Assembly: GCA_000091205.1 (NCBI GenBank)
Contig: AP006502.2
Length of the DNA stretch: 64,000 nucleotides
Source of the DNA: Cyanidioschyzon merolae
Lineage: Eukaryota
Reading direction: 5' to 3' (one strand)
The notes beneath the pieces were generated by a model. It had not been told where the DNA came from and made no database searches. It saw only the letters and a list, made by a program, of their open reading frames with translations. The translations under genes were made by a program, and so were the position numbers. Each line of letters begins with the position of its first letter. The first letter of the stretch is position 1. This document shows positions 1 to 57,300 of this stretch, piece after piece.

Positions 1-211
1 CGCGCACCGGAGAGATCAGGCAGGCATGAGTTATGACGCGCTTGTCGCTGTTGAATGGAAACGCGATCCAAATCTTTATGATCTACCTGTAAAGTACACG
101 TTGTATTTGCATTGAAGTCGTAGCAAACTGTAGTTTCAGTTGAATCGTGTTTCAGCGCTCAAGTAAGAATATTCAAGTGCTTTTTCGCGGTTTATAGCAG
201 AAGCGTTCAAA

Positions 212-951
212 TTGTGTTCTTTCTCGAAAGAAACTAAAAAAAGAAAGTTATGGAAAAGCAAGTGGAAGATCCTCGAGGGCCGGTACCGCCGGCTGCCAGA
301 AGAAAAACAAAAAACAATATGGAGTCCAGAGGAACAGGAGAGGACGAAGAAGCAAAGGCAGAAGGCTCTACTTCAAAGGCTGCAAGAAAGACGACTGTAC
401 GACGAGATGGTGGTGAAAGCCTTTCTTCTTGGACATATCAGGTATCCGTACATACAAAAATTGCGAGAGGCCATCAGAAACCGTGTCGATTCATGCTCCA
501 AGAGTGTTCGCAAGGCTTCTTTAGGACTGATGCGTATGGCCGGGGATATATTCCGCGACGTGACGCACATGGAAACGGTCGAGATTCCGGACGAGTTTTT
601 CGATAAGACGTGTATAGGTCAGCTGATACTTGGTACAGAGGAATCGCGGAAGGAAAATGGGCTAGTCCATGGCCTCCACGAAAAAAACATCCCTTTTACA
701 GCTTCAACGGCGCTCGGTACAAGGGTGACCGGGATATTTACAGCTATGGGGCGATGAAGTACCTCACGAACCTGAAGAACCATTTGACAACGAACCTCGA
801 ACGTTTCATGATACGCGCCGTGTTTGCACTCTACCCGGGCATCTCGCGCAATGGGAAAGGGGCGATGATCAACGGCATCACGAAAGATCGCAGGCATGAA
901 GATGAGGTCGAATTCGTCGACAAGAAGGCATCAAACGCGTGCACGAATTAA
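212..951 (+). pseudogene. Element-borne ORF1 region (lysine-rich N-terminus KKRKLWKSKWK), split into two frames (212..757 and 610..951) at an A7 homopolymer (681-687). It is either decayed or expressed by a -1 frameshift or transcriptional slippage.
   Basis: Both frames are conserved at the amino-acid level in copies B (23089..23852, minus) and C (30635..31309, minus). A fused reading ...GLVHGLHEK|KHPFYSFNGARYKGDRD... would need A8. The product is not recognisable. Confidence 0.35.
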
Positions 952-1166
952 GCTTCTGTAATCCGTGCGGCTGTACAAGAGCACCGTGCGGTACTGGGGT
1001 TGGCGTATCCAACAGACAAGATATCAGAGTTGAAAGAAGATAAGGAAAGATACTATCGCCTCATCCTGCGATATTTCGTGTTTCTGGACTGTGAACTCGA
1101 ACGCAAGGCGGAAATGAAGCTGAGTGAGGAAAAAATGAAGAGTGGGAGAGACGGAAGGCTGTCCTG

Positions 1167-2477
1167 TTGGGGAAGCGCTTCAAGGTCGGTGCGTTATGCA
1201 ACATCAAGTCACATTTTGTGAGTATCGATTCCGGCGTCCTCTACGGCATCATGAGGGAGATCTGTTCGGAGTTCGATGTTAGCAGGGAGGAATTCTCCCG
1301 GGAAAACCGGGAGACGTACTGGAAGAACATCTTCGATTTCAAACGTCTCAAAATGAGCGAGCAAAAGTTATTCACTGGGGTGATTGAAACCGATGGAGTA
1401 GCCATGTGTGTACGCTATCGGCGGTTGAAGAAAGATCGGCCAGTTCCGCCCTCGGCTGCGCCCGTCACGAAGGATGAAGAAAAGGAGGAGGCTGGTCCTG
1501 TGGCGCAGGAGGTGCAGGATGACGATCTTGTCGTTGGCGCGGCGAAGCATGAAGATGAGAAGGAGGCGGATCCTGTGATGCAGGAGGTGCAGGATAACGC
1601 CTTTATGGTTGGCGCGGCGAAGCATGAAGAAACGAAGAAGGCGGGTCCTGCGGTGCAGAAAGTGCAGGAGAACGACTTTGTCGTTGGCGCGGACCCCGGA
1701 AACACAAAAAGCATAACTATCGCAGCACCGAAGCGTGCAGAAGATGGTACTGATGGTAACTTGCGTCAGAAGGACATGCGCCTTTTGAGGTGCTCGAGAG
1801 CAAGATACTATCGAGAATCAGGTGTAATGAATGCAAGGAAGAAAATTGAGGCTTGGAACGAAGGAATGAAGGATCACCTGGAAGCTTTAAGCGAGGTGAC
1901 TAGACGAGGAGCGGACTTTGAGGCTTTTCGGAAATTCATGGAAGTTCGTGTTGCCCATTGGGATGCGCTGTGGGAGGAGTATACCAAGCCCCGCTGGGCT
2001 CGTTTGCGAATGAATCTATACTGTGGGAAGCAGCAGGCGTTCGCGAATTTTTTTAATGAGTTGAGCGCCCTGAAGGAGGATGAAAGTCAGAGGCTCGTCG
2101 TAGCGTACGGAGCAGGGCGCTGGAAGATCCGAAAAGGGTGTACACCAGCTCCAACAACGAGAACGTACAAGGAGTGTGCACGGCGTTTTGTTACAGTATC
2201 GATAGTTGAGTTTCGAGCATCGTATACACACCATGAGCTGGGCTGTATACTTCAGAGAGTGGAGATGGAAAAGTGCCAACGGAGCCCTGAGGATATAGCA
2301 AAGTACGGACCACTGACGGAGGAGCAAATGGAAAGGAGGGCAAAAATTCGTGGACTACTTGCATTAGTAAGTGCAACTCCCAACGGCACGAAACGTATGG
2401 AATTTGTGAACCGTGACTTTAACGCCGCTATCAATATACGGAGATGTGCGGTACTGGAGAAGAGACCTCCATCATAG
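1167..2477 (+). CDS. TnpB/Fanzor-like RNA-guided RuvC endonuclease homolog (OMEGA-type, IS200/605 OrfB family), intact 436 aa
   Basis: RuvC-I-like VVGADPGNT with Asp176. C-terminal RuvC-III signature [16 protein letters not shown] with Asp417, as in TnpB DRDVNAAINI. Degenerate Zn-finger-like segment THHELGC...EKC lies between them. The gene is repeated in three element copies. Confidence 0.75.
1470..1694 (+). repeat. In-frame 3 x 75-bp tandem repeat (25-aa units [21 protein letters not shown]). The third unit carries the RuvC-I Asp; units 1-2 end in GAA instead of GAD.
   Basis: The protein shows LVVGAAKHE / FMVGAAKHE / [10 protein letters not shown]. The antisense ORFs 1368..1625 and 1415..1714 are repeat artefacts. 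Confidence 0.8.
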
Positions 2478-2582
2478 ACAAGAGAGCACTTTATTGAACA
2501 ATCTGTCCAAGTCGAACTATATGAGAGAAAGTTGGAAGCAGTAGGAGGTGGCCGATCCAAGAAGGCGCGGAGGCATCTGCAC
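2478..2582 (+). ncRNA. Candidate omega-RNA (reRNA) scaffold at the element right end. The guide is expected from the flank immediately beyond 2582.
   Basis: A 105-nt segment between the nuclease stop codon and the point where homology is lost. It is conserved in copy B (21458..21561) and partly in copy C. The position matches where TnpB and Fanzor omega-RNAs are encoded. Confidence 0.35.
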
Positions 2583-2762
2583 AACTGTCGGAGATGATTT
2601 GTCCAAGGCGCGGTTGCCGCCACGACTGTCCACGCCCGACATCGTTCGAGTTTGAACAGCGTTTTGGAGGCGCGTAATCGATTCATTCGGTTCGCGTTGG
2701 AGCTTTTCGCGGCGTTTTCGTTTCGTGACTGCCGGACACGGGTTTTTGTGAGAAACAGCGAC

Positions 2763-3003: not shown

Positions 3004-3388
3004 GCGCGGTGGTGACGGTACTGGTGCTGGCGGCAGCGGGTCGTGCAGCTTGTAGTTCATAGTCGGTGACCTGGACGTTGACGGAGCGGTGGTTATGGTG
3101 GCAGTGCTCGTGGTTGAGCTCGGCCCGTTACCCGCCAACGCGCTGAGGGGTCAAAAAGCAATCGGGGCTGTCGGCGTGTCACCGTTACAAAGCTCTGCTG
3201 TTGCAGGATGCGTTTTCCCTCGCCAGTTTGGACAAGAAGCTGCCCTCATTTCGGGGCGCTGGAACCAGTGCGAGGCAGCGCCGAGGCCAGGAGCATATGT
3301 CGGGGACGTTCACAGAGCTGGTTTCGATTGAGGTTGTGACGGTTGTGGTGGTTATGGTGCTGGTGCTGGTGCTGGTCGTGGTGGAACT
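3004..3388. repeat. Imperfect GTG/GCT/GGT-rich microsatellite cluster (e.g. 3333-3388 gttgtgacggttgtggtggttatggtgctggtgctggtgctggtcgtggtgg)
   Basis: Direct reading of the sequence. It produces spurious poly-Val and poly-Thr ORFs on both strands. Confidence 0.7.
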
Positions 3389-7170: not shown

Positions 7171-9485
7171 ATCTGCTTCCTGTTCCTGCCTTTCGTGTCG
7201 TTCTCTAGAATAGGAGTTGCGGCGACGGTCATGGTGTCGTTCAACTCGATTTGGATGTCCACCACAAACTCCCTCTGGTCACGCATGTTGAGCGGGTGAA
7301 AAAGAGTCTTGTTTGTCGACTAAAGCCTTGGTATCACAGAACGCACGCACATGGGTACTCCGTCCGTCTCCGTTGTCCCCAGAGACTTTCTTCGGTACCC
7401 TTCAAGAACTCCAGAAATCGTGAACGAGCCCCGCCAGTGCTCTGCTCGGAGTTCCCCGAATGCTCTAAACTTGCGCGGAGCAACTAGCGGGAGCTAAATG
7501 AGCAGGCCATACAGTACAGCACACAAGCGTCTACGTTAGTGTGATGAGCCTTTATCTAAAATGTGCGAGCAGCATCGAACACATGCTCGGGGAGGCTAAG
7601 GTGCTCGGTTTCGTAAACGGAGTCAGCCTTTCTCTGGAGGGCGCTTCACTGGAATACGAAGTAGCGCAAGATGGAAGCAAGGCGGGCATCACGTTCCAAT
7701 CATCCCTCGGATACAGTGTCCATTTGGCCGAGCCCGAGTTGAACGAGCTGAGCTTGCAGCATCTGAAACGACTCTCGCTCTCGTTGCGACATCTCTTCCG
7801 AACTCGCGAAAATCTCGAGCTCGTCGGTCACCAGCAACGCATTTGTCTCCATCGGCAGCCCAGTGATGTTTTCCATTAGGATCCACTTTATTGGGCTAGA
7901 ATGGTGAGGCTAAAACGCGCACATGGTGCTCTTTTTGGAGTGTTTGAGATTGGCCTTCATATGATGTTTGAGGTCGGATCGACTTTTTCCTGGTACCTGG
8001 AGAGCGTTTCTTCCAGTCTCTGATCCCACTATCAGGCTGCACTGCATCTTCTGTGCCGAGCATCAGAGGTGCTGTTGCACGACGGTTTGGTCGACGCGTT
8101 CCAGAAGAATGTGAGCAGCTGTCAGCCCTGCATCGGAAACGAGTTTGAACCTACGCTTGACGAGGTGCAGCCAGGCGACTGAGGCTAGACGAGACATGCT
8201 CGAATCAGTAGCCACGAACATCTCTGTGGCATTCTACATCTTTCAGCCTCACGGATGCGAACGAATCGTCTATTGATCCGTAAGCGTAAAAATGACGGTA
8301 GATTGTAAAGAAGACGCTTTGGAGCAGACTGAACCGGGAAGAAGAAGTTCACACGAGGAGCAACACAGCGTAAATCTCAGCTGGGTACGTCTTGATAATA
8401 CTCGAGCGATGGAAAGTGGCATTCTCCAGGAGCAGAGCAAAACAGTTTGGCACGGGAAAGCCAAGAATTGTGCTTCGACGAAGGATATACTTTGAACAAT
8501 CCTGCTTTTTTTGCGATTTGTGATCGACCGCACGATTGCGTTGCTACAGCGGCTGATGTTGTCGTCGTTCTCGCTTGTCTCTTATGTACGCATACCGATT
8601 TTTCTTCTTTGAATACCCATATATAGACCCACCATTTATCCCAAATAGGGGGTCTTGTCAAGTGAGATGAACGCCAGCCACTCCTGCGATAAATGTACTC
8701 TTTTTCGTACGAAATCGACAATGCGTTGTTGAACACACAGGATTCTGGAATGGATGCGCAGTTTTTTGTCCATGCCCGTCCATAGCTCTTCATACCTGTT
8801 CGTGTCGACGCTATAAAAAGCTCATTTGCTGCTGCCTCATCTTGAGTATTTCGTAAAGAAACCTATGGAATAAGATCGATTGACATGTACAGTCGAGTCC
8901 ATAGAATTTGAAATGTTCTATTTCTGGGTGCGCTGTGTTCAGGTAAAGCACGACCCCGAGCGTGACTCATCCACCTGCAGGCCGTAGAATGACGAACTCG
9001 TAGAAGCACAACTGTTTTCCTGCAGCTGTCAGCGACAGCATCCAGTCTTTCAACGATGTTTCCCCACTTTCCAGGAAATACTTCTTTTGTTGAATACGTG
9101 CAAGAAAATCGAGTAAAAACGAAACATGGCATGCTTTAACAGGTATTTCAGAATCTACCGCTCCGCGTACCATGCTCTTCATCGACGACACCCGAGACTT
9201 ACTCGCGAAACGAACCCACCACCGAAAGGCCTATGCAGAAACGCCACACATGGATCAAACCGCACGCTCCGGGGAACGTCGGGCAGTTGCATTGGCGGAA
9301 CGCACACGAGCGTCGATAGAAGGACTCGAGTGTCTTCTCGCTGGTTACTGGGAGCGTGCTGTCGTTCGTCGGACTCGGGCCGTTCCTATTAATTCTTCTT
9401 CAGGAACAGTCCATTCATAAGTGATCCGAGCAACTCAATCGCTGCGTCGACCTCTTGAGTGTCGTTGAAACTTGCGCACTGTGCG

Positions 9486-20232: not shown

Positions 20233-21369
20233 TCACAAAGTCGCGGACGCCTTGCGGTAATAAGGCGGCCACAGATCATAACCGAATCGCTCGTAATCCT
20301 CGGCGTACAATTTTCTAACCCTTTGCGCCAGACGTTCGTTCACGTGCTTGTGCAAGAGGCTTGCTGCGCTCTGGGAGTGCAGGGTATTCCGGCCGCTCGC
20401 TTGTGCTCGCTTCCGCATGGATTCGTGCCACTCGAGACCGGCCTGACCAAACATATCCACGTAAAACTTTCGAAGTGACTCGGGTTCATCTACTTTTCCG
20501 ATACAGTCGAAGAATGTCCGAGGCAGCATGCGAAAAAGGCAGAAGCCCGACTGTGGGCGCCAATGTTCGTCGAACGGTGTCAGATCTGGGGTCATGGTCT
20601 TTGCAGCCTCTTCCAGGTAGTCCACAAAACGTTCAAACGAGTGAGGGTATCGATTTTTCAATGGATATCGTTCCAGTTCGCGTCCAGCTTTGACTTTATC
20701 AAGGTAAGCCGACAGCAAGCGTGTAAGCGGATGGCGCACCAGGGCACCAAACTTCCACGATGGATCCGAGAGCACTCGAAGAAGCTCCTCGTCCTGCAAA
20801 TGAAGGAGCTGCGTCAAGTTTGCGCGGCCTTGCGGATGAATCAAGTGGATTTCATCGGCATCCAGGGGGTCCAGAACCACCCCCAGCGTTTCCCGCAAAG
20901 CAAATGCACGTGCGGCAGTACAACCGGCTTTCGGTATCGAGCAGAGCAGGCGCTGTTGTTTCGCGAATACGATAACGCCAACAAACGATTGCTCCTGTTC
21001 CCGACGCCAAAGATCAGAAATATTCTGAAAATACTCTGCAAGCGGTTTTTCATTGAAGAGACTTGCAAGCACTGGGGCTTGCCAGGAAAAGTTTACTGTG
21101 TGAGAACGATACTCACTCGGAGAAGATGTTTCGAGTCCGGGCGACGGAACCATGAGGGTTTGCAGCACGCGGTGCGAGGCCAGGATCAGAAGCAACACCC
21201 AGAAAACGGTGAACCAGAAAAACCACCGAAACCATAAATGCATATCTATTTCCTCTACACCGACACGTTGCTTTCCAGGGAAACGAGTGGGAAGATCGTG
21301 TTCCCTCACTCGCCTAATACAAAGCGCCAATGGCTGCAGAAGCGCTGGTGCGGAGTACGCCGCACGCAC
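20233..21369 (-). CDS. Golgi-type carbohydrate sulfotransferase (Sulfotransfer_2 family), type II membrane topology. The likely true start is the Met at 21243 (MHLWFRWFFWFTVFWVLLLIL).
   Basis: 5'-PSB-like IPKAGCTAARA and 3'-PB-like VRHPLTRLLSAYLDK, plus EHWRPQS and a C-terminal YAEDYERFGYDLWP. It is a paralog of 26163..27236. Confidence 0.6.
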   Translation of the reverse strand: MRAAYSAPALLQPLALCIRRVREHDLPTRFPGKQRVGVEEIDMHLWFRWFFWFTVFWVLLLILASHRVLQTLMVPSPGLETSSPSEYRSHTVNFSWQAPVLASLFNEKPLAEYFQNISDLWRREQEQSFVGVIVFAKQQRLLCSIPKAGCTAARAFALRETLGVVLDPLDADEIHLIHPQGRANLTQLLHLQDEELLRVLSDPSWKFGALVRHPLTRLLSAYLDKVKAGRELERYPLKNRYPHSFERFVDYLEEAAKTMTPDLTPFDEHWRPQSGFCLFRMLPRTFFDCIGKVDEPESLRKFYVDMFGQAGLEWHESMRKRAQASGRNTLHSQSAASLLHKHVNERLAQRVRKLYAEDYERFGYDLWPPYYRKASATL

Positions 21370-21457
21370 GCACCAAACGCCGTTCGAACTTGAACGACGT
21401 CGGGCGTGTACAGTAGTGGCGGGAAAACCGTCTTAGATTAGAAGTCTCCAACTGACG

Positions 21458-21561
21458 TGCAGATGCCTCCGCGCCTTTTTGGATCGGCCACCTCCTACTG
21501 CTTCCAACTTTCTCTCATATAGTTCGACTTGGACAGATTGTTCAATAAAGTGCTCTCTTGT
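21458..21561 (-). ncRNA. Candidate omega-RNA scaffold of copy B. The flank beyond 21457 (element orientation: gtcagttggagacttctaatct...) would be the guide.
   Basis: About 97% identical to 2478..2582. It ends at the same ...ggaggcatctgcac boundary. Confidence 0.35.
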
Positions 21562-22872
21562 CTATGATGGAGGTCTCTTCTCCAGTACCGCACATCTCCG
21601 TATATTGATAGCGGCGTTAAAGTCACGGTTCACAAATTCCATACGTTTCGTGCCGTTGGGAGTTGCACTTACTAATGCAAGTAGTCCACGAATTTTTGCC
21701 CTCCTTTCCATTTGCTCCTCCGTCAGTGGTCCGTACTTTGCTATATCCTCAGGGCTCCGCTGGCACTTTTCCATCTCCACCTTCTGAAGTATACACCCCA
21801 GCTCATGGTGTGTATACGATGCTCGAAACTCAACTATCGATACTGCAACAAAACGCCGTGCACACTCTTTGTACGTTCTCGTTGTTGGAGCTGGTGTACA
21901 CCCTTTTCGGATCTTCCAGCGCCCTGCTCCGTACGCTACGACGAGCCTCTGACTTTCATCCTCCTTCAGGGCGCTCAACTCATTACAAAAATTCGCGAAC
22001 ACCCGCTGCTTCCCACAGTATAGATTCATTCGCAAACGAGCCCAGCGGGGCTTGGTATACTCCTCTCCCAGCGCATCCCAGTGGGCAACACGAACTTCCA
22101 TGAATTTCCGAAAAGCCTCAAAGTCCGCTCCTCGCCTAGTCACCTCGCTCAAAGCTTCCAGGTGATCCTTCATTCCTTCATTCCAAGCCTCAATTTTCTT
22201 CCTTGCATTCATTGTACCGGATTCTCGATAGTATCTTGCTCTCGAGCACCTCAAAAGGCGCATGTCCTTCTGACGCAAGTTACCATCAGTACCATCTTCT
22301 GCACGCTTCGGTGCTGCGATGGTTATGATATGTGTGTTTCCGGGGTCCGCGCCAACGACAAAGTCGTTCCCCTGCACTTTCTGCACCGCAGGACCCGCCT
22401 TCTTCGTTTCCTCATGCTTCGCCGCGCCAACCATAAAGGCGTTATCCTGCACCTCCTGCATCACAGGATCCGCCTCCTTCTCATCTTCATGCTTCGCCGC
22501 GCCAACGACAAGATCGTCATCCTGCACCTCCTGCGCCACAGGACCAGCCTCCTCCTTTTCTTCATCCTTCGTGACGGGCGCAGCCGAGGGCGGAACTGGC
22601 CGATCTTTCTTCAACCACCGATAGTGTACATACAATGCTACTCCATCGGTTTCAATCACCCCAGTGAACAACTTTTGCTTGCTCGTTTTGAGACGTTTGA
22701 AATTGAAGGTGTTCTTCCAGTAGGTTTCCCGGTTTTCACCGGTGAAGTCCTCCCTGCTAACATCGAACTCCGGACTGTTCTCCCTCATGATGCCGTAGAG
22801 GACGCCGGAATCGATACTCACAAAGTGTGACTTGATGTTGCATAACGGAACGACGTTGAAGCGCTTCCCCAT
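21562..22872 (-). CDS. TnpB/Fanzor-like RuvC endonuclease homolog, intact 436 aa (about 93% aa identity to copy A)
   Basis: Same motifs as copy A: VVGADPGNT and [26 protein letters not shown]. Length and stop position are identical. Confidence 0.75.
22345..22569 (-). repeat. 3 x 75-bp in-frame tandem repeat inside the copy B nuclease gene (same as 1470..1694)
   Basis: The protein has an identical repeat structure. The antisense ORFs 22081..22830 and 22319..22624 are artefacts. Confidence 0.8.
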
Positions 22873-27236: not shown

Positions 27237-29347
27237 ACTATAGTCGCTGGTCCCAGCTAGCGAGGTTTCCCTTCCAACCGTTCAACGCCGACGGAGCGTT
27301 TCAAAGGAGAAATAGACAATTTTGGTGGCGCTGCTGACAACTGCGCGCTGGCTCCGTGCCCTCAGTCGGTGGCCTGCGCAGCAGCGGGTGCTGTTCGATC
27401 GCGCTGCGATGGTGGCGGCGAGGCGGCGTCTGCCGCAGGCTGCAACGTTTGCCGTGGATGCATCCGGCTAACGTGCCAGAGCGGGTGACTGACGAGGTTT
27501 TTGTTGCTCACCAAGGAATATCGGTAAAAGTGACAGGGATCCGCTTTGTGTGTGACAGATGACAGTGATTCGTGGAGAAGCTGGGTTGCTTCCTCAAGTG
27601 CTTCGATAGGCCGGATCAGCCGCACCGCTTTTCGGATCGGGGTACAGAACTGCACTCCGTAAATTGGTCGTGTGGGTGTCAAGTCAGTCTGGGGTACGTT
27701 TCGTTGTAAGATCAATGGGCTTAAGCAGGTTGTCTTTGGGTGTGGACATACGATTGGAAACAAGGGAAAGCGTTTCAATCTACACGCAGACGCTTCTGTG
27801 TGCTTCTCAGTAGTCAGAGCCGTGTTTCGCTGAGGTGTAGCAGCTAGATCGATCGAGCGTTGCTTCGGATACCGAGCGTGCGTCCAGATGCTTGCCGGAG
27901 TCCTGGATACGACGCCGCTGCTGCCGATGCCGCGGTTGCTCCCTACACTCGTATCAGATAGAAAAAATGGAACACGGAGCTAGACGCTCTTTTCCCGCAT
28001 TTCGATTTCGTTTCGGGACTTTTTTTAGGCTTACCCTCCCGGAATTCGAATTGCCGCACTAAAGATTGTAGAGTCGTAGATGGTTTCGGGATTCTCGGTC
28101 GTGGCGATTGAGAGGATCGCTGAACGCTGTACTGCTGGTATTTGTGACGTCACCGGAATCAAGATGATTCGCTATGCACTCGAAGACGGATTCGTAAAAT
28201 AACCGACATCATTATCCAGTGCTTACGGACGAGCCCCCGCTCTTCTATTCTTCTTACGTATCGCATGGTAAAACCTCTTATTCTTCAAGTTGTCGATATT
28301 TCGTTTTCAAGGCAACCCATGGGTGCAGCAACTCGTGCCACGGGATTGAGGCGGACATGCACTCCAACTCGTCCCTTGAAGACGTCTTCTCCACATGACC
28401 ATGCCGGCATTTCACTGAACTTTTCTCGCTAAATGATCGATTTCGTTCAAACCAGAAATGCATCTCCGGTTCAGGCCACCGACGAAGCGGCATGCAACAG
28501 CAGCATGGTACCTCTGAGATAATACGCTGCCGAGACACCGCCATCACTTTTGTAAACATGGAAGAGACTTCTAGAATCGAAATTTAGCCATCGCATCGAT
28601 CGCTTCCAGTTCAGATTGCTTCTGCTTCTTGCATAAGAGCGGCGTCGACAGATAGAAATTTCTCGACATGATCTCCAGCTTGGATTGCCCTTTTGGTAAT
28701 TGTTTCACCATGGAAAACGCTGCGTTTCAAGAATGGTCTATCGAACAGAGCAGTGTGCGCTTGTGCATGTAGTGAACAGCGTACTCGCCGCGAGATCGCC
28801 CAGAAGAAGCACATGATCCGAAGGGCATCATACCGTGCTCAAAAGTGAGATGCGCATCGAGGCGGGCCTTCTGTATGCGTCAAGGGCAGGTATCGAGCGA
28901 TGATGCAAGCGTTCACGCCCCACATGTTGGTTCTCGGAGTTCGGCATACAGCGGATACATAGGAGCATGTGACCATATTCAAGTATCGCTGCCGCGAAAC
29001 GCGCACCGAAGCTGTATACAAAGAAAATTCGTAGACCGCAACTTCCACCTGGGCATGATATGTGTCGGCAACCGCCGCAAGCAGCGAAACGGCCGGGACA
29101 GGAAAGATCAGCTTACGTAAAGCCGGAGATAACAGAGAGGCAAAGAAAATAGTCACAAAACCTGTCCAGAAAGGCTGGCGTTGATGGCAATGAGAACAGC
29201 GTCCCAAAACTGTATTGTGTACGCCCGTAATCGTGGACTCGTTCCATGGTAGTCTTCTGGGGATGTAGCGACGACAGCAGCGTCAAAGAAATGTCGCACC
29301 GCTTCACGCGCAATGTCCGACGATCATGAGAGGTAAATGAATATCCA

Positions 29348-30588
29348 CTCGCAGACGCCTCCCAGTCTTTCTCGACCGGCCTGCTTCTGTCGGTTTCAGC
29401 ATCTCCCTATACATTTCGACGCTGAAAGGCTGTCCAGCAAAGTTGGCTCGCGTCTGCTCCGCGGGTCTCTTCTTCAGCACCGCGCATCTTCGGATACTGA
29501 TAGCAGCGATAAGGTCTCGGCTCACAGACTCCATGCGTTTCTTGCCGCCGCCTGTACACGGCAATGCGAATAGGCCTCGAACTTTCGCCCTCCTTCCCAT
29601 TTGCTCTTCCGTCAACGCTCCGTACTTTCTTACATCCTCGGGGATCCGCTGACGCTTTTCCATCTCGACCCTCTGAAGTGTACACATCAGCTCGTGGTAC
29701 ACGTAGGACGTTCGGAACTCATCTGTAGGTATCGTGACGAAACGCCGTGCGCTCTCCTTGTACGCTCGTGTCGACGGAGCTGGCGTAGTCCCTTTTTTCG
29801 ACGCCCAGCGCTCTGCCCCGTATGCAACACGAGCCTTTGACTCTCGTCCTCTTTGAGGGCGTTCAGCTCGTTGGAAAAGTTGGCGAATGCACGCTGCTTC
29901 CCACAAAAGAAGCTGATACGCAGACGAGCCCAACGGGGCTTTGTGTACTCTTTCCACAGCGCCTCGTACTGAGAAACGCGAACTTTCACGAATTCCCGAA
30001 AAGCTCGAACGTCCGCCCGACGGCTCGTCACCTGGCTGATCGCTGCTAGGTGTTCTTTGACTCCTGAGTTCCACTTCTCACTCTGTATCCTTGGATTCCT
30101 TACCCAGACTCTCGGTAGCACCCAGCGCTTGAGAACCTCAAAAGACACATGCCTTTCTGACGTAAGTTACCTTCAATGCCGTTTCCCCCGCGTTCGAGTG
30201 CTGCGATGGTCACGGTATCCGTGTTCTCGGGGTCCGCGCCAACGACAAAATCGTTGCTCTGCACCTGCTGTGCCGCAGGGCCCGCCTCCTTTTCTCCACG
30301 CTTCGTCAAAATCGACAACAAAAACGGAATAGGACGATCCGCCTTCAACTGCCGATCGTGCACATACATGGCTACTCCATCGGTTTCGATGACGCCTGTG
30401 AATACCTTTTGCTTGCTCGCATGGAAACGTTTGAAATCGAAGATATTCATCCAGTATGTCTCCCGATTTTCGGCGTTGAACTCTATGTTCCTTACATCGG
30501 ACTCTGGACAGACCTCCTTCATGATGCCGTCAACGGCTGTGGAGTCGATAGTCACGAAATGTGATCTGATGTTGCACATTGGAACCAC
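29348..30588 (-). pseudogene. TnpB/Fanzor-like nuclease pseudogene. It needs at least 2 frameshifts (fragments 30100..30588, 29687..30148, 29304..30074), has a single repeat unit and lacks a stop at the homologous position.
   Basis: VVGADPENT is retained, but RuvC-III is altered to RDLIAAISIRRCAVL and the Zn-finger Cys are lost ([20 protein letters not shown]). The ORF reads through the right end into the flank. Confidence 0.65.
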
Positions 30589-30634
30589 GTTGAAGCGCGT
30601 CCCCAGAAGCGCCGCCTTCCCTCTCTCTTACTCT

Positions 30635-31309
30635 TCATTTCTCCCTCACCCAGCTCCTTTTCGGCCTTGCGTTCGAGTTCTCAGTCCAAAAACACGAAAT
30701 AGCGCAGGATGAGGTGATAGTATCTTTCCTTATCTTTTTTCGTATGTGCAACCTTTTTGCTGGGTTGACAAGCCCCAAGACTGCACGGTGCTCTTGTAGA
30801 GCAGCACGGATTCCAGAAGCTTCGTTGTTTCTCCTGCGTGATGTCTTCTTGTCGACGAATTCGATCTCATCTTCACGCTGGCGATGGTTCGTGACGTCAT
30901 TGATGAAGGCCCGTATCCATCTACTAGACAGGTCCGGGTAGAGTGCAAACACGGCGCGTATCATGGAGCGTTCGATGCTCATGGTCAAGTGGTTCTTCAG
31001 GTTCGTGAAGGACTTTTTCGCATCGTAGGTGTAAATATCCGCCTCAGCCTCGTACCGTCTACAGCTGAAGCGATATTCGGCGTAATTCTAGTGGAGAACG
31101 TGCACTCGCTCGTCTCTCCTCGTCGTTCTCCCTGTTCCAAGCATCAGGTTGCTGATATATATCATATGGAAAAATTCCTCCGGAATCTCGACTATTTCCA
31201 TGTGCGTCAGGTCGTCGTGCATCTCGTTCACCAAATGGATTCGTTCTGACGAGGCCTTTATATTACTCATGGAGCACGAGTCGACACGGTTTCTGATGGC
31301 CTCTCGCAA
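30635..31309 (-). pseudogene. Remnants of element ORF1 in copy C (30635..30988 and 31088..31309)
   Basis: MIRAVFALYPDLS...EDEIEFVDKKTS and REAIRNRVDSCS...THMEIVEIPEEFF are homologous to the ORF1 frames of copies A and B. Confidence 0.4.
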
Positions 31310-32684
31310 CTTTTCCTTTTACGGATCCATGACATGTTTAAGAAGGTAGGCTTTCGCCACCGTCCAGTCGTACTGTTGTCTTTCCCGCAGCCTTTTCTGC
31401 GTGGGGCCTCCTGCCTTTGCTTCCTTGTCCTCTACTGTTCCTCTAGACTCGGCACTGCTTTTTGTCTTTTCCGGCAGCTGGCAACAGCGGTCCTTAAGGA
31501 TCCTCTATTTGCATCCCCATAACTTTTTTTATTTTTGAAAACGAACGCACTTTGAACGGATCTGATATGAACCGCGAAAAATCACTTGAATAAACTGAAC
31601 TGAGGCTTGAAACACGATTGGATTGAAAGCGCACACTTTGCTATGACTTCAATGCAAATACAACTTGTACTTTAGAGCAACAAGCTAATGATCAGAATTG
31701 CATTTCTCTTCAACTGCGAGATACGAATCGTGTCTCATTCCTGCCAGATTTAGAGGTGCGCGGATCGACCGGGCTTTAGAAAAAAGAACAGATACGAACC
31801 ACTAGCTAGGAAACACAAGTTCTTTGGCAATCTACGGTAAACGTTTCAAGGGGAAAAGGTGTCCACATTGTCGGAAGTTTACCTTCTACGCGGAAAGTGC
31901 CGCAAGCCGGACGAGTCTGCACGTCTTGCGCTTCATGCTCCCTCCAGTGTTGGGTGGTGTTGTAAGATATGAGCTGCTCTTGTGCAATCCGGTTTATTCT
32001 GGAATTCGGAGCAGGTATGCTGCGTCTGCGTGTTGCCCTGCTCGCAGGATTATCCGAGTGTATCGCTTCGCGCTGTCGCAGACACTGGGTCTGTATGCCG
32101 AGTTTCCAGACTCCTAGAATGATTATGTACTCAGACCCCGTGATGGGTAAACGAAGTCTCGAGACGATGCCCTAAGTGGTATGGCAAAGCCATTTTGTAA
32201 CCGTGATGTTCGGCATCAGCGGTATAGGCGCTGATGTAGGTGTTCGTAGCAGATACTCTGCGAACGATAGAACGTACAAACCGGCCAATACATCCGAGAG
32301 GAGGTAATGGAACCTGGAGTCATGGTGCAGCAGTATGATGGACGCTTTCCCGAAAGCCATTATCCAATGATCCTGCAATCTAGAATCCTTGGTCAATGGA
32401 ATGGTTCTGTCATCACCGTTAAGGATGCGCAGCCGGGGATCCTGGTCGTCGATGTTGCCTTGTTGTCCCGCAAACTTCATTGCCGAAGATCTGGTACTAA
32501 AGTATATAATTATGTCCATAAAGGATCCAGGTATCCCACATCGCCAAGGCGCTCTGGGCCGCGATCTCCCCGGCGCCGCCTTGGGCGCAGCAGAGCGCAG
32601 CGTCTGACGGACCGGGAGCATTAGCACTGGACGCGAAAGTTTAGGATTAGGATTGACGCCCGCAAGAGTACCTAGATCGTTTTT

Positions 32685-49592: not shown

Positions 49593-51191
49593 TCACAAGG
49601 GATTACGAAGAACCTTTTCCAATACGGTGACATTCGGCGCGGCCACAGCACGACGTGCTTTAACGTGCGACAAGGCATCCTCCAGCGTCATGCCGCGGCG
49701 CCACACGAGGTAGGCGACAACTACAGCGGGCGCTCGACCCATTCCTGCGGTACAGTGCACGTAGACGACGCGCTTCGCCTTGAGCGCCGCATCAAGAGCG
49801 CGTACGGCATCCGGAAGCAACTGCATGAGCGCCTCCGCATTAAAATCCGGAATCGGACAACGGATGACTTGCATCTCTAGTGCTGTATATGTCTCCATCA
49901 GCGTCGACCAGGGAATACTGCGGTGTGCAAAGTCCTCATCGGTCTGTAAATTCAAAACAGCCGTAATCCCCGCCTCATGCATCATTTCGACATGCTCTGG
50001 AGTTTGTGGGTAGGGCCCTATGTAAATGTCCGGACATATTTCATCAAATTCTAACGAAGCGACAAAATTTGCATCGAAACATTCGAGGCGCCCGTTCACC
50101 GCTCGTTCTAGTGTTGCATAGCGATTCGGTTCTCGTTCCCAGATCGTTTGCTGGCGGTTATCGTCGACTAGCACATAGCGATAGGCGAATTTGCCCACCG
50201 TGGATGGCACTGAAACCGTCAAGGACCAACGTCGGCCCTTGCCTCCTGTTTCCAAACGCTCCTCAGTAGTTGAGAGGGCCATGGGTACTGGACCCGGTTC
50301 TACCCACCGACCGATTTCCGGAAGATCGCCAGTGACACAGAGATGCTGCTTCTCTTTGGTAGGATAGTATATTGAGAACAGCACACGCGTACGCTCCCAT
50401 TCCACTTCAATCAGGCAGCCGTCCTTCGAGTTTCTCTGGATCACGGCTCTTCGGTTGGGTCCGGTTTCCCAGAGCGCACGCTGCGGATCTCCGCCTATAA
50501 GACGCACGAATTTGAACTCGAAGCTTGTTTCGGGTACAAGGTCTACCTCGCCTTCCCAGCAGTCACGGAACGGTGTATCCACTTGGCATTGATGACGGAG
50601 CCGGAGCGCTTTCGCGGGCTCCCAGTTGCCCAATTTGTCGTGACTACCAGCGGCGACGACAGCATCGCCAAACTCCGTGTGGCAGTAGACGCGGAATAAA
50701 GTCGGAATCGTCGGGGTTACGCTTCGATCATTCTTTGAGATCGTGTCCGCAATGTCTGAAGGAGGCCCAGGTACAGAGATATCCTCGGAAGCACCCCGTG
50801 CGGCTGGTGTTGACTGCGCACCAGACGAATCAGCAGCTGGCTTTGACGGAGGCTCAGGTACAGAGACACCCTCGGATGCAAACCGTGCGGCTGGTGTTGA
50901 CTGCGCACCAGACGAATCGGCAGCTGGCTTTGATGGAGGCCCAGCTACAGAGACTCCCTCGGAAGCACGCCGTGCGGCTGGTGTTGACTGCGCACCAGAC
51001 GAATCAGCAGCTGGCTTTGACGGAGGCTCAGCTACAGAGACTCCCTCGGAAGCACGCCGTGCGGCTGGTGTTGACTGCGCACCAGACGAATCAGCAGCTG
51101 GCGCTCTTGCCATCGACGGCACCCGATGCCGGCTTTCCGAGCCTGCCTGGTCGTTTGTGTTCCGGCGATCCGATGTTCGTATACGCGCCAT
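49593..51191 (-). CDS. Laforin/SEX4-like glucan phosphatase (two CBM20 starch-binding modules + dual-specificity phosphatase) with an N-terminal tandem-repeat region
   Basis: CBM20-like FRVYCHTEFGDAVVAAGSHDKLGNWEPAKAL and LFSIYYPTKEKQHLCVTGDLPEIGRW. DSP active site VHCTAGMGRAPAVVVAYLVW. Confidence 0.6.
   Translation of the reverse strand: MARIRTSDRRNTNDQAGSESRHRVPSMARAPAADSSGAQSTPAARRASEGVSVAEPPSKPAADSSGAQSTPAARRASEGVSVAGPPSKPAADSSGAQSTPAARFASEGVSVPEPPSKPAADSSGAQSTPAARGASEDISVPGPPSDIADTISKNDRSVTPTIPTLFRVYCHTEFGDAVVAAGSHDKLGNWEPAKALRLRHQCQVDTPFRDCWEGEVDLVPETSFEFKFVRLIGGDPQRALWETGPNRRAVIQRNSKDGCLIEVEWERTRVLFSIYYPTKEKQHLCVTGDLPEIGRWVEPGPVPMALSTTEERLETGGKGRRWSLTVSVPSTVGKFAYRYVLVDDNRQQTIWEREPNRYATLERAVNGRLECFDANFVASLEFDEICPDIYIGPYPQTPEHVEMMHEAGITAVLNLQTDEDFAHRSIPWSTLMETYTALEMQVIRCPIPDFNAEALMQLLPDAVRALDAALKAKRVVYVHCTAGMGRAPAVVVAYLVWRRGMTLEDALSHVKARRAVAAPNVTVLEKVLRNPL
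50741..51107. repeat. 4 x 87-bp near-identical tandem repeats encoding PPSKPAADSSGAQSTPAARRASEGVSVAE units at the phosphatase N-terminus
   Basis: The DNA units ...ccagacgaatcagcagctggctttgacggaggc...gtgcggctggtgttgactgcgcacc are repeated almost verbatim. Antisense ORFs 50525..51247 and 50743..51321 are artefacts. Confidence 0.85.
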
Positions 51192-54311: not shown

Positions 54312-57300
54312 GTAGCGGCCCTGTAACTAGTACGTTTGCAACGCTGGCTGCCGACGAGAGCGTCGCAACATCGTTCTGCTGTGAATCTTGGGAAGGGTGT
54401 GACGGGATGCGCCTTGCGCTTTGCTCGCCTTTCTTGTTGGTACTGAGCAAAAGGGTATTATCTTCTGGATTCAAGGAAGGTCGAGGAAAGATGTGATAAA
54501 TTCATTACGAACTTGCGAAAAACAGCCTTACTTGTACTTGCTGAACATTCTCCGATCAGCAAGTAGATGAGCGAGCCTTCTCGCTGCCCTCATCCTGAAA
54601 GTCATAAAGTAAAACAGAACTTACCAAACCCCTGCCTACGCAAATGCCTTCCCCTCTATGCATTCCACTCCGTATATGTGTTGATAACTAGAACTAAAAA
54701 GCTAAAGGATTTCAAGTTTCCGTACCGATGATACGAACGGTCATGAAGAGAACCGGGTGAATTACGAGATATGCACGCTTCTACGAAAGAATGCCACACA
54801 TTGATCAATACACCATCGAATACGTACAGAAATGCGCAAGTGTATTACAGGAGAGATCGATATCCGTGTCAATCGATACGGTTTTATCATGGGAAAATAC
54901 TAGTCTTGTATACAAGTGTTCAAAGAGGGGCAAATCGCCGTTCGTGAAGAGGATGCTCACGAATATGACGACAACATCATCCCTAGCTGCAGGCCGATTG
55001 CGTGGTGGACTAAAAAACGCTAATCGTTGAAAACCTCAACCTTCGTCGAAGCAGGCTTTGTGGCTTGTACTTTCCGTATGTTTTTGTCCTGCTCGAAAGA
55101 AACCTCGCTTTCCATCACTCAGGAGTAATTAAGGAGCACGCATCTGAGAATTGAGTTGAGCTGCACACGCTGCCAGCCTAAACGCACTGCTTCAATCCAT
55201 TCGAGAGCGTTTTTACCATGACCGAAGGCCACTTCTACGCGCACGTGTCAAGAGACGGATCGCTCGCATCTATGACCCTGTTCTTCGACAAATTGCTCTT
55301 TGAGAAGCCGTTCCCTATCTCCATCAGCCACGAACGGCTGCGTTGATCCTTTGCTCACACAGGGAAGCGAGCATTAAGGCGTGTTCCTGTCCGTTTGAGG
55401 GCTCGCGATCGAGAAAGCGATGGAAAGTTACTTAGAGAATCGCAAATACACTCAGAGAGAAGGCGAGTGTCGGTGCGAGCGTGCCCCGATGCATTAAAAT
55501 TCAGCGGGAAAAAACATGGAGTATAACGACCACATCTATGGCTCCTCGTAAAGTAGAGGAGACGGCGAAGAACGGGTAGGGCTTTGTGAGCAGGTACGAA
55601 GCATTTGAACAACTTCGCGAAAAGCTCTTTGTCGTCTGCACCAGCACCTCGATGCGCACCAGTTTTTCTACGTTGCAGAGGGAGCACCCCCGCACTGGCG
55701 GTACAGGTACGTTCGATGGAGAATATGAGCGGCGCCGAAGCAGAGGAGCTGATCGATGCAATTTGGTTCATGAAGTGAACTATGCTTGCTTTGGCCCGAA
55801 TATTCTATGGCACATATGAACTACAAGAGGAAAAGGTATGGATGGTAAAGAAAGACGCCAGGAGGAAGAGAGCTGCGGGACAGGAAGTTCTTCATACGGC
55901 GAGGATTCGTGTCGTCTTCGTTCGTGACCGACGGTGTGGACGTATCCATCGTCATGAACTGCTGCCGAAGGCCATGCTTAAGGACAACCTCAGAGCTGAA
56001 ACGCATTTCTGCTCAGAAGAGCAAGTACGCGGAAGAACCACTAGCAGTGGAGAAGCGTAATCTCACGAATTTGCTTCCGAAGCCCGTGTAACTCGGGCCG
56101 GAACCAGGAGAGCGAGACTCTACACCTGCACTTCCGTGAGATCCGAGGACGAGTGCGAGCGTTGTGTATCAACAGACGACGCTCTGGAGCCACAATTCGC
56201 AGAGCCTCCGAATCCCACATACAGCGGTTACTTCAGCTCACACACCTGCGGTTTCCATCACAGCGGAAGAAACGGGTAAGATAACTGTTCAATGCGCGAG
56301 CCAGTGAAGCAGAATGGAGTCGTACAAGTGCTGACCGTATTGCTGTGAATCGATGGAAGATGGGGATACGATGTCTACGAATGGTTACGGTACTTTGAAG
56401 TCCGTCACCCTTATTCGCAGTTCTTTTGTGAAGAGTGCCCAGAACACGGAGAGCGCGTTATCGAGCGGCATCATGTGCGCTCTCACGTGCAGCGGACGGA
56501 GTATTCGCCAAAGGTATCGCCCAGAGCACGCTCATTACCTTAGCGTAAAGCCCCGAGCGCCTAAGCTGAGAAGAGCATGGAGGAGTACCTTCTTTACTCA
56601 TCACGCATGTGTGCCGAGAGATGAAGCAAGTGTTCACACACCATGGGGCGGCGCCCAGACTAGGCGTCACTGCGGATGGATGGAAACAAGTGGCCATCGT
56701 AAAGGGTCATTGCGGCGGAGGGCGCACCGAGGCTGTATGAAAAGAAGATGCAACTGGCAAGCGAAGCGTAGACTGCAACTTCCGTCCTTGAACGTAGTGC
56801 GTCAACAATAGCTCAAGGTATCGAACTCGAGACTTGAACCCTGCCATCATCATTAACATCCTTCGTCTGCCGATGCCGGCGCTGGGGATGCAGCAGCAAC
56901 CAACATATTCTATCCCGGAGATCACAGGCAGGAAACGGAAGCATTCGCAGAAAGCGCCGGCAAAGGCCTGTGTTGGTGATGATATGGATAGAAAGAACGA
57001 ATGTTCACTGAGCGCGTCCGAGTCTGCTAGGAAGAGCGTTACATTTCACGCTAACATTGATCTAACGAGCCGTGCCGACGGTGCACAAGGCACACAAGCT
57101 GCACGATCAAGCGGTGTACGAGTGCAGCAATGACATTGCCCTGTCTTGCACAGACATCTTGTCACACGCATTCCTTGCATGAAACCTCTGTGAAGCGGCA
57201 TTTTATTTTAGATCTTTTACGCAGTCAAAGCGTTCTGACGGTGACGCTGCCTCAAAAGCGACCACTTGGCAATTCTGCACATCGTCGACCTCGCGCCAGA

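Follow-up and report, generated by a model that had tools for sequence, protein, structure and literature searches.

Decayed copies of a Fanzor1 element with a coding tail, a probable recombination edge and a candidate omega-RNA 3' module in a 64-kb window of DNA

Fanzor elements are described as carrying a 3'-terminal omega-RNA whose guide is drawn from the sequence flanking the element (Saito 2023, PMC10432273). [quoted passage not shown] Passages in two papers report an overlap of omega-RNA and ORF in OMEGA and Fanzor systems (PMC10530073; PMC10432273), and a rearranged RuvC glutamate has been described for Fanzors (PMC10530073). Further systems with which the present locus can be compared include PpFz1 of Parasitella parasitica (PDB 9cf0-9cf3; Xu et al. 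2024, PMC11423790), the TnpB nucleases of IS200/IS605 elements with their omega-RNA (reRNA), for example ISDra2 (8h1j), and the Tc1/mariner-associated Fanzor1 elements (Jiang et al. 2023, PMC10530073).

The stretch of DNA analysed here, referred to as the window, is 64 kb (64,000 nucleotides) long and contains three decayed copies (A, B and C) of a mobile element of ~2.7-3.3 kb each, the element having a single gene, which encodes a Fanzor1 nuclease. A preliminary description had assigned a TnpB/Fanzor architecture to these copies, with a conserved 105-nt tail behind the nuclease gene as the omega-RNA scaffold and with guides taken from the flank directly beyond it. The general outline of that proposal is borne out, in that a TnpB-family nuclease (Fanzor1) and a conserved 3' module with modelled hairpins are present, and every specific coordinate assigned to the architecture had to be replaced. 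Taken jointly, the observations are probably explained by decayed Fanzor1 copies with a coding tail, a recombination edge at 2582/2583, an element that extends to ~2675 and a 3' module that would belong to an omega-RNA.

The Fanzor1 family and its copies in the window

The copies of the element and their longest open frames are located in the window as follows.

1..2675, + strand: copy A of the Fanzor1 element, delimited by repeat families I1-I10, the family conservation profile and the limit of A/B homology
1167..2477, + strand: longest open frame of copy A, 436 aa
21364..24680, - strand: copy B of the element, with its right end at ~21364 and 5' homology with other copies to ~24677
21562..22872, - strand: longest open frame of copy B, 436 aa, terminating in the same premature TAG (21562-21564) as copy A
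29348..31750, - strand: copy C, older, 64-80% identical to A by repeat comparison

The 5' end of copy A is cut by the start of the window, the L084 allele carrying ~52 nt more of the element (left boundary L084:3120), and its right end lies at ~2675 (+/- 4 nt). The open frame at 1167..2477 retains RuvC-I (GADPGNT), the relocated glutamate (VEFRAS) and the RuvC-III motif, and upstream of it the gene is disrupted by a TAA in frame at 949-951 and by a frameshift close to 1132. Copies A and B are paralogues in inverted orientation, separated by 19 kb. They have in common two nonsense mutations that are absent from alleles elsewhere, one being the TAA in frame (at 949-951 of A), the other the TAG (2475-2477 in A, 21562-21564 in B). 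Copy C is fragmented, and its ORF at 29304-30074 (-) reads through the tail. All three copies are pseudogenes. An ORF intact from the start to the family stop was found in 0 of the 82 family loci examined, the longest (L002/L004) ending early at NFIG, and the family may therefore be largely dead. The genes neighbouring the copies are eukaryote-like, comprising HMG-box, Nrap and sulfotransferase genes.

The assignment of the protein was established through profile and fold comparisons. At E<=0.001, 185 close homologues of the 436-aa ORF were found, and an exhaustive profile search extended the set to 1511 relatives. Scans of the ORFs and close homologues with Pfam and NCBIfam, as well as a phmmer search of P0003 against the PDB, returned no match, with no TnpB model being reached; the precomputed Pfam annotation of the family contains weak matches to DUF8286. 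When a profile of 54 homologues was compared with the PDB, only Fanzor1 chains were matched, with E-values of 4.7e-22 for P. parasitica 9cf0, 9.2e-14 for S. punctatus 8gkh and 7e-6 for G. theta GtFz1 9cer. An AlphaFold2 model of P0003 built on the 54-sequence alignment reached a pLDDT of 79 and a pTM of 0.77 (pLDDT 31 with a shallow 16-sequence alignment), and in a Foldseek search of the PDB with this model the top seven matches were Fanzor1 chains (E 1.5e-15 to 6.6e-13, probability 1.00), as expected for the Fanzor1 fold (REC/WED, RuvC and TNB); matches to Fanzor2, TnpB and Cas12f reached an E of only 0.02-0.4, the values for TnpB and Fanzor2 being ~0.02-0.03. D484 (DPG), E656 (DEFR) and D725 (NRD) are invariant in the 54 homologues; A621-Y622-G623-A624 (AYGAG) occupies the canonical RuvC-II position, the glutamate being relocated downstream. 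Judged by profile similarity and predicted fold, the protein family is Fanzor1. It is characterized by a 25-aa tandem-repeat linker and a 42-residue C-terminal extension, which corresponds to the tail, and a few metagenomes contain at least 447 of its loci. In a scan of metagenome contigs, 80 loci were taken from the 447 confirmed matches, giving the 51 non-redundant 3' regions on which the family comparisons below are based.

Among the described systems, PpFz1 is both the best profile match (4.7e-22) and the top fold match (1.5e-15), the alignment spanning REC/WED to RuvC-III and ending at a common RPP..(S/T)R motif; PpFz1 stops a few residues after this motif, whereas the family here is ~40 residues longer. 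SpuFz1 (PDB 8gkh, 9ceu-9cez; profile E 9e-14; fold E 1.5e-14, TM 0.71 on the target) has the catalytic motifs DPG / DEFRTS / NRD in common with the family, both are multi-copy with a single Fanzor gene, and the 3' module described below matches the SpuFz1 scaffold in position, size and conservation. The two differ in that sequence identity is only ~14%, that no 30-nt inverted repeats were found around the element here, that the family has the repeat linker of 25 aa and the C-terminal extension of 42 residues, and that the copies in the window are pseudogenes. TnpB belongs to the same superfamily and follows the same logic of 3' scaffold and flank guide, with a weak fold match of the RuvC core to ISDra2 (8h1j; E 0.028), but this match is far weaker than that to Fanzor1, and the family here has a rearranged glutamate (AYGAG at RuvC-II) and a eukaryotic context.

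The 105-nt tail and the edge at 2582/2583

The segments that bear on the nature of the tail are listed below.

2475..2477, + strand: TAG of copy A, premature relative to the family
2478..2582, + strand: 105-nt tail of copy A, ancestral C-terminal coding sequence (TREHFIEQSVQVELYERKLEAVGGGRSKKARRHLH)
21457..21561, - strand: tail of copy B, 104/105 identical to that of A
2583..2606, + strand: last 8 codons of the ancestral ORF (consensus VSWRRFV + stop), with a stop codon at 2604-2606 in 29/51 copies

The conservation of the tail between A and B amounts to 99.0% (104/105) and not to ~97%, as had been estimated. The ends given for A (2582) and C (29348, ...gcgtctgcgag) are correct, and the last base of B is 21457 instead of 21458, because the 14-mer GGAGGCATCTGCAC, which occurs exactly twice in the window (2569-2582 on the + strand being the other position), sits at 21457-21470 (-). 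The tail is recognisable in C, as had been stated, with 64% identity to that of A (29348-29455, -). Its definition as the stretch from the nuclease stop to the right end does not hold, since the stop at 2475-2477 is premature and the right end lies ~93 nt further downstream.

Proteins P0002, P0006, P0008, P0009 and P0018, together with the ORF of copy C, read through the tail past the position of the A/B stop, and these read-through proteins continue as ...RPPE(W/L/S)TRENFxGQPLKVELYEKKLEAVVGGRSKKTGRRLHVSWRRFV followed by a stop. The family stop is at the equivalent of 2604-2606, where TAG, TAA or TGA is found in 29/51 copies, and the ancestral protein, ending at this position, is 42 residues longer than the A/B stop allows. 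Nucleotide diversity at the three codon positions is 0.184/0.132/0.217 in the tail (51 copies), compared with 0.131/0.103/0.262 in the RuvC-III segment and a flat 0.39/0.40/0.42 after the family stop. The dN/dS of the tail (pooled Nei-Gojobori) is 0.43 in the ORF frame, whereas the alternative frames give 0.70 and 1.46; the RuvC-III segment has a value of 0.26, the final seven codons 0.83 and the sequence past the stop 1.04. Since read-through, the family stop, codon diversity and dN/dS all place coding sequence beyond it, the TAG at 2475-2477 terminates the frame prematurely. At the equivalent codon, 13/51 copies have TAG, 12 TGG, 7 TTG and 6 TCG. In other samples, alleles of locus A (L089, L091, L092) have GCA TTG, not TCA TAG, and an allele of locus B from another sample (L093) likewise has GCA TTG, without the TAG. 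The tail is untranslated in copy A because of this upstream TAG only. Within 2583-2606, copy A has an in-frame TGA at 2595-2597 and CAA at the family stop position 2604-2606.

As RNA, the tail folds no better than its dinucleotide shuffles (z +0.67 and +0.71). The covariation check across copies that had been suggested for it was carried out with RNAalifold on 45 copies, from 2466 to the equivalent of ~2690, and returned only 11 pairs, all inside the tail, at -0.48 kcal/mol and with 2 compensatory pairs; the plain MAFFT alignment of the 45 copies missed the 3' hairpins because loop indels misaligned them. The conserved 105-nt tail is the C-terminal coding end of the Fanzor1 gene, and its interpretation as an omega-RNA scaffold is abandoned, given the in-frame coding signature and a fold or covariation signal found in neither of these analyses. 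A dual use, in which the tail would be translated and would also form the 5' part of a longer omega-RNA (~200 nt) overlapping the end of the ORF, is considered unlikely. Such an overlap occurs in many TnpB and some Fanzor loci and is described for OMEGA and Fanzor systems (PMC10530073; PMC10432273), the tail has a lower dS than the RuvC-III segment (0.36 versus 0.46), which could reflect extra constraint at the nucleotide level, and a quarter of the copies keep the tail sequence despite a TAG just upstream, but the z values and the RNAalifold energy just given show no stable or conserved fold of the tail.

Beyond the tail, all three copies had been said to diverge completely. Positions 2583-2675 of A and 21364-21456 of B are identical at 68/94 sites (72%), compared with 49.4 +/- 2.7% and a maximum of 56% in shuffled controls, and the gapless A/B inverted repeat (I1) extends to 2675/21364; only copy C, with an identity of 51% beyond 29348, is at chance level and really loses homology there. 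Column conservation in the 51 copies is 0.8-0.94 across the tail, 0.71-0.94 up to the equivalent of 2659 and 0.63 at 2660-2669, falling to the flank level of 0.40-0.45 only from ~2670, so that family conservation ends at ~2668-2675. The sequence after 2582 can be aligned in nearly all copies (consensus GTCAGTTGGAGACGTTTTGTCTAG), and because it is homologous among them, the element extends ~90 nt past 2582, in A and B as in ~45 other copies.

The supposed guides starting at 2583 are thus internal to the element. In A and B they correspond to the last 8 ancestral codons, and in C the sequence after 29348 is unrelated because this copy is truncated or diverged there; it is without the 3' module and gave no match to the 3'-module model described below. 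It is highly improbable that the tail is a non-coding omega-RNA scaffold ending at 2582/21457/29348 with the next ~22 nt as flank-derived guides. Such a model accords with the strong conservation of the tail between A and B, the sharp drop of A/B identity at 2582/2583, the loss of homology in copy C at the same place and the Fanzor1 identity of the gene; however, >45 copies share homologous sequence at its guides, which encode the family's final 8 codons, A/B homology continues to 2675, and the tail combines a frame-specific coding signature with no structure signal. Copies elsewhere also have variable 3' ends with respect to the 2582 boundary. Equally hard to credit is a derivation of the A/B similarity past 2582 from duplicated host flanks or a repeated target site, which would suit the identity of ~72% there, lower than inside the element, but conflicts with the occurrence of the same ~90 nt after the tail in ~45 independent loci whose further flanks are unrelated. 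Flank diversity rises to 0.68-0.71 (random) only after ~2672, and the flanks after ~2675 are unrelated between copies.

The identity of A and B varies in blocks along the element, being 70-82% at 101-600, 98-99% at 601-1100, 90-95% at 1101-1500 and 95-100% at 1501-2582, with one difference between 2280 and 2582, and then 63-70%. The last 90 nt of copy B are closer to L026 (81%) than to A (70%), and the variant AACTGTCGGAGA of copy A is also found in L054. From these comparisons, the simplest reading of 2582/2583 is that it marks the edge of a high-identity tract arising from gene conversion or recombination among family members. In copy C, too, homology breaks off within 2-3 nt of the A/B breakpoint; the recombination account treats this as a coincidence and offers no other explanation for it. 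A possible splice donor, GTCAGT at 2583, was dismissed because its first two bases differ between copies.

The 3' module and its modelled hairpins

A conserved 3' module with modelled hairpins is present after the tail, and the element ends beyond 2582, at ~2675. The module and its surroundings comprise the following features.

2607..2621, + strand: hairpin H2 (GGCG...CGCC core, variable loop), from model R1 and pair counts
2620..2633, + strand: most conserved non-coding motif, CCACTACTGTACAC (CCACGACTGTCCAC in A), conservation 0.94
2640..2661, + strand: terminal hairpin H3, consensus CGTCGTTCGA-CTT-TCGAACGGCG, degenerate in copy A
2662..2675, + strand: G/T-rich terminal segment after H3 (TTTG[GT]TG...), from subfamily comparison
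2676..2695, + strand: first ~20 nt of true flank, in which a guide would begin on the SpuFz1 model (PMC10432273), should the 3' module act as omega-RNA scaffold
21374..21464, - strand: segment of copy B recognised by R1, the model of the 3' module, at 93.3 bits (H2 at 21418-21432, motif at 21406-21419, H3 at 21378-21399)

R1 is a covariance model with a seed of 18 copies and 92 columns starting at 2575, comprising three hairpins (H1, H2 and H3), of which H1 overlaps the stop; in copy B, the last 8 codons overlap a small, weakly supported hairpin. A search with R1 returned 54 matches, 50 of them at E<=1e-8 and four weak. In the resulting alignment, 80.8% of the cells are paired, compared with 33-49% when partners are slid by 1-3 columns, and 12/19 pairs change on both sides, compared with 6.8 +/- 1.6 in shuffles (1/500), a statistic that overstates significance because the alignment is fitted to the model and the sequences are related. 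Most of the compensatory changes are found in H3, where all nine modelled pairs (helices 3-5 of the tool's table) changed on both sides; H1 and H2 have almost no double-sided changes and rest mostly on conservation. The ratio of G.U to A.C is 25:6 in H2, 37:11 in H3 and 8:21 in H1, and the excess of G.U in H2 and H3 (not H1) favours folding of the sense strand.

Folding of single copies points in the same direction for most of those tested, the ~93-nt 3' module having z values of -2.65 in copy B (2/200 shuffles as stable), -2.75 in L026, -3.14 in L063, -2.97 in L032 and -2.38 in L054. The value for 2583-2675 of copy A, in which the terminal hairpin is degenerate, is +0.5. No Rfam family was matched at the gathering or E<=1 thresholds. 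An enclosing outer stem around H3 (ACACC...GGTGT), plausible by eye and present in many MFE folds, failed a permutation test, the native energy of -9.04 kcal/mol being matched by -9.09 kcal/mol in permuted sequences, with 1106/2000 permutations at least as good.

When subfamilies are compared, the right end falls 11-17 nt beyond H3, at ~2672-2678 in A, in agreement with the limit of A/B homology at 2675/21364. The unrelated flanks beyond ~2675 are compatible with a flank-derived guide, as in the analogous SpuFz1 system, and do not amount to proof of one. By the same analogy, it is tentatively suggested that 2583-2675 may represent a compact (~70-95 nt) omega-RNA scaffold of an uncharacterised Fanzor1 lineage that recombines 3' RNA modules between copies.

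Element ends, carrier transposon and significance

The ends of the element were examined for the signatures of a carrier transposon. A search for TIRs on copy B found none pairing with the right end, nor any 30-nt inverted repeats around the element, and the Tc1/mariner hallmark of TIRs with TA duplication was not detectable for the copies here. A Tc1-like terminus (TA followed by CAGT...) and a Helitron2-like asymmetric TIR were considered and rejected, the inverted right-end motif being seen 16 times at left ends with ~23 expected by chance, by our own estimate; Helitron CTRR is absent from the 3' ends. At the left ends, the copies differ in how far they extend 5', and four alternative 5' modules lead to a common GCGCTC-GGT-GAGCGC hairpin. 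Empty sites joining the left and right flanks, for which a search had been proposed, were sought via the flanking genes of A and B, and none was found there. The HMG-box gene beside A was located at 10 loci, of which nine are occupied alleles; L083, an HMG-box locus, differs from 24 nt before the ATG and is regarded as a rearrangement or a chimeric contig because it does not join the left flank of A. The sulfotransferase gene beside B was located at one locus, an occupied allele.

Relatives of the family nevertheless provide a link to a known class of transposon. In L094 and L096 (~36-39% identity), a Pfam DDE_3 (Tc1/mariner) transposase gene lies directly upstream of the Fanzor gene, and in L095 and the divergent copy L044 a tblastn homologue of this transposase occupies the same upstream position. 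Fanzor1 elements associated with Tc1/mariner transposons were reportedly described by Bao and Jurka in 2013. The arrangement in L094 and L096 resembles that of the Tc1/mariner-associated Fanzor1 elements (Jiang et al. 2023, PMC10530073), from which copies A, B and C and most family members differ in having no transposase gene and no detectable TIR or TA duplication. Since relatives carry DDE_3 upstream and the copies here are without transposase, TIR or TA duplication, sequence comparison indicates that A, B and C are probably non-autonomous derivatives. For an IS200/IS605- or IS607-type TnpB element, an associated TnpA (Y1 or serine recombinase) and a prokaryotic context would be expected; here the Fanzor gene takes up practically the whole length of the element, leaving no space for another gene, the neighbouring genes are eukaryote-like, and the transposases adjoining relatives are of the DDE_3 (Tc1/mariner) type.

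These observations also bear on whether the 3' hairpins act at the level of DNA or mRNA, as a transposase recognition signal or terminal hairpin, or as an element of 3'-end formation or stability in the Fanzor mRNA. H3 is GC-rich, with a T/G-rich run after it and the element end 11-17 nt away, Tc1/mariner DDE_3 transposase genes adjoin related as well as divergent family members, and the excess of G.U cannot tell RNA from top-strand ssDNA. A signal of this kind is nonetheless regarded as doubtful, given that no TIR pairs with the right end and inverted copies of the motif occur at about the estimated chance rate, that the asymmetry of G.U and A.C argues against a strand-symmetric dsDNA site, and that the position, size and conservation of the module are those of the SpuFz1 scaffold.

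The account that is preferred here, decayed Fanzor1 copies carrying an omega-RNA 3' module, can be set out as a series of steps. The premature TAG (2475-2477) in A and B leaves the end of the ancestral ORF untranslated, and the two copies would have exchanged sequence by gene conversion or recombination, with the edge of the tract at 2582/2583, beyond which they would carry 3' ends from different sublineages of one family. The element goes on for ~93 nt, to ~2675 (A) / 21364 (B), through H2, the almost invariant CCACTACTGTACAC motif and H3. On the SpuFz1 precedent, this 3' module, possibly reaching 5' into the end of the ORF, would serve this Fanzor1 as its omega-RNA scaffold, with the guide coming from transcription of the adjoining flank, from about 2676 in A and 21363 in B onwards; guided in this way, an intact member of the family would cut empty sites, as has been demonstrated for SpuFz1.

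The analysis illustrates that reasoning on boundaries from two or three copies is unsafe in mosaic repeat families, as the sharp edge of A/B identity lay here inside an ancestral ORF. Its outcome is a set of corrected coordinates for the candidate omega-RNA scaffold (~2583-2675) and the guide start (~2676), together with the identification of a large Fanzor1 family that had not been characterised before. As Fanzor1 and its 3' omega-RNA are already known, the conceptual advance is modest; the copies in the window are largely decayed members of a new family within this known system. If the 3' module is indeed the scaffold, a protein reconstructed from the family consensus and combined with it would constitute a new programmable nuclease.

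Internal repeats and the 5' side of the element

All copies of the Fanzor1 family (A, B and the metagenome loci L004-L082) converge at a 5' hairpin, GCGCTC-GGT-GAGCGC, which takes the form GCGCG...CGCGC in one class. Upstream of this hairpin, four alternative 5' modules are found, each common to 6-14 copies, and their 5' extents are ragged. Within the ORF of copies A and B, three tandem 75-nt units, each encoding 25 amino acids, exhibit a mutual identity of 80-83%. The number of 25-aa repeats differs between homologues, with one extra unit in the family protein P0001 and more in P0005, and in the AF2 model of P0003 the repeats are located in a low-confidence linker (residues 374-470), immediately N-terminal of the catalytic motif RuvC-I. 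A separate tandem repeat with an 87-nt period has no relation to the Fanzor copies.

Repeats and 5' hairpins of the window
Just upstream of position 1: 5' hairpin, copy A
About 24040: 5' hairpin, copy B
1468-1692: three tandem 75-nt repeats in the Fanzor ORF, copy A
22347-22571: three tandem 75-nt repeats in the Fanzor ORF, copy B
50757-51102: tandem repeat, 87-nt period; reported by the tool as three copies of 172 nt that overlap, each shifted by 87 nt from the last, with 91-93% identity

Transposase remnants and distant relatives

Two degenerate Tc1/mariner transposase remnants, neither of which adjoins copies A-C, were detected in the window by tblastn.

54701-55328, + strand: DDE_3 transposase remnant
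8220-9081, - strand: DDE_3 transposase remnant

In tblastn comparisons, the aligned segments of these remnants are approximately 24-44% identical to transposases lying directly 5' of the distant Fanzor1 relatives L094-L096. Additionally, the 3' flanks of L095 and L096 have in common a long hairpin, CTCGAGC...GCTCGAGT(A/G)TA, about 230 nt past the stop codon, which may represent the right-end or omega-RNA module of those relatives themselves.

L095, about 3190-3260: shared long hairpin
L096, about 3290-3360: shared long hairpin

Neighbourhood of copy A

The right end of copy A is followed by a gene for a small basic protein of 75 amino acids, whose similarity to the HMG-box family PF09011 is weak and below the cut-off (E 0.004).

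2763-2990, + strand: gene for the 75-aa protein, 88 nt 3' of the right end of copy A

This gene is unchanged in 37 blocks of the collection index (23 contigs read), representing at least 10 loci among the matches listed. The HMG-box gene adjoining copy A is also present in the metagenome contig L083 (1-581), where the upstream sequence is entirely different, starting 24 nt 5' of the ATG; judged by eye, this upstream sequence presumably resembles an aminopeptidase gene. L083 was considered as a clean empty site and rejected because its upstream sequence has no match to the left flank of copy A; it is a rearrangement or a chimeric contig.

Homology loss in copy C and premature stop codon

All homology of copy C is lost at 29348, at most 2-3 nt from the point (2582/2583) where A/B identity falls from 99% to about 70%. 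This agreement could be a coincidence, or the sequence ...GTCTGCAC could be a hotspot for recombination or truncation.

The codon at the premature stop (2475-2477 in copy A, 21562-21564 in copy B) is hypervariable among the 51 non-redundant family 3' regions, being TAG in 13, TGG in 12, TTG in 7 and TCG in 6. Copies A and B alike carry TCA TAG at this site, whereas alleles of both loci from other samples (L089, L091 and L092 for locus A, L093 for locus B) carry GCA TTG, which indicates that the same two substitutions have been homogenised between loci 19 kb apart.
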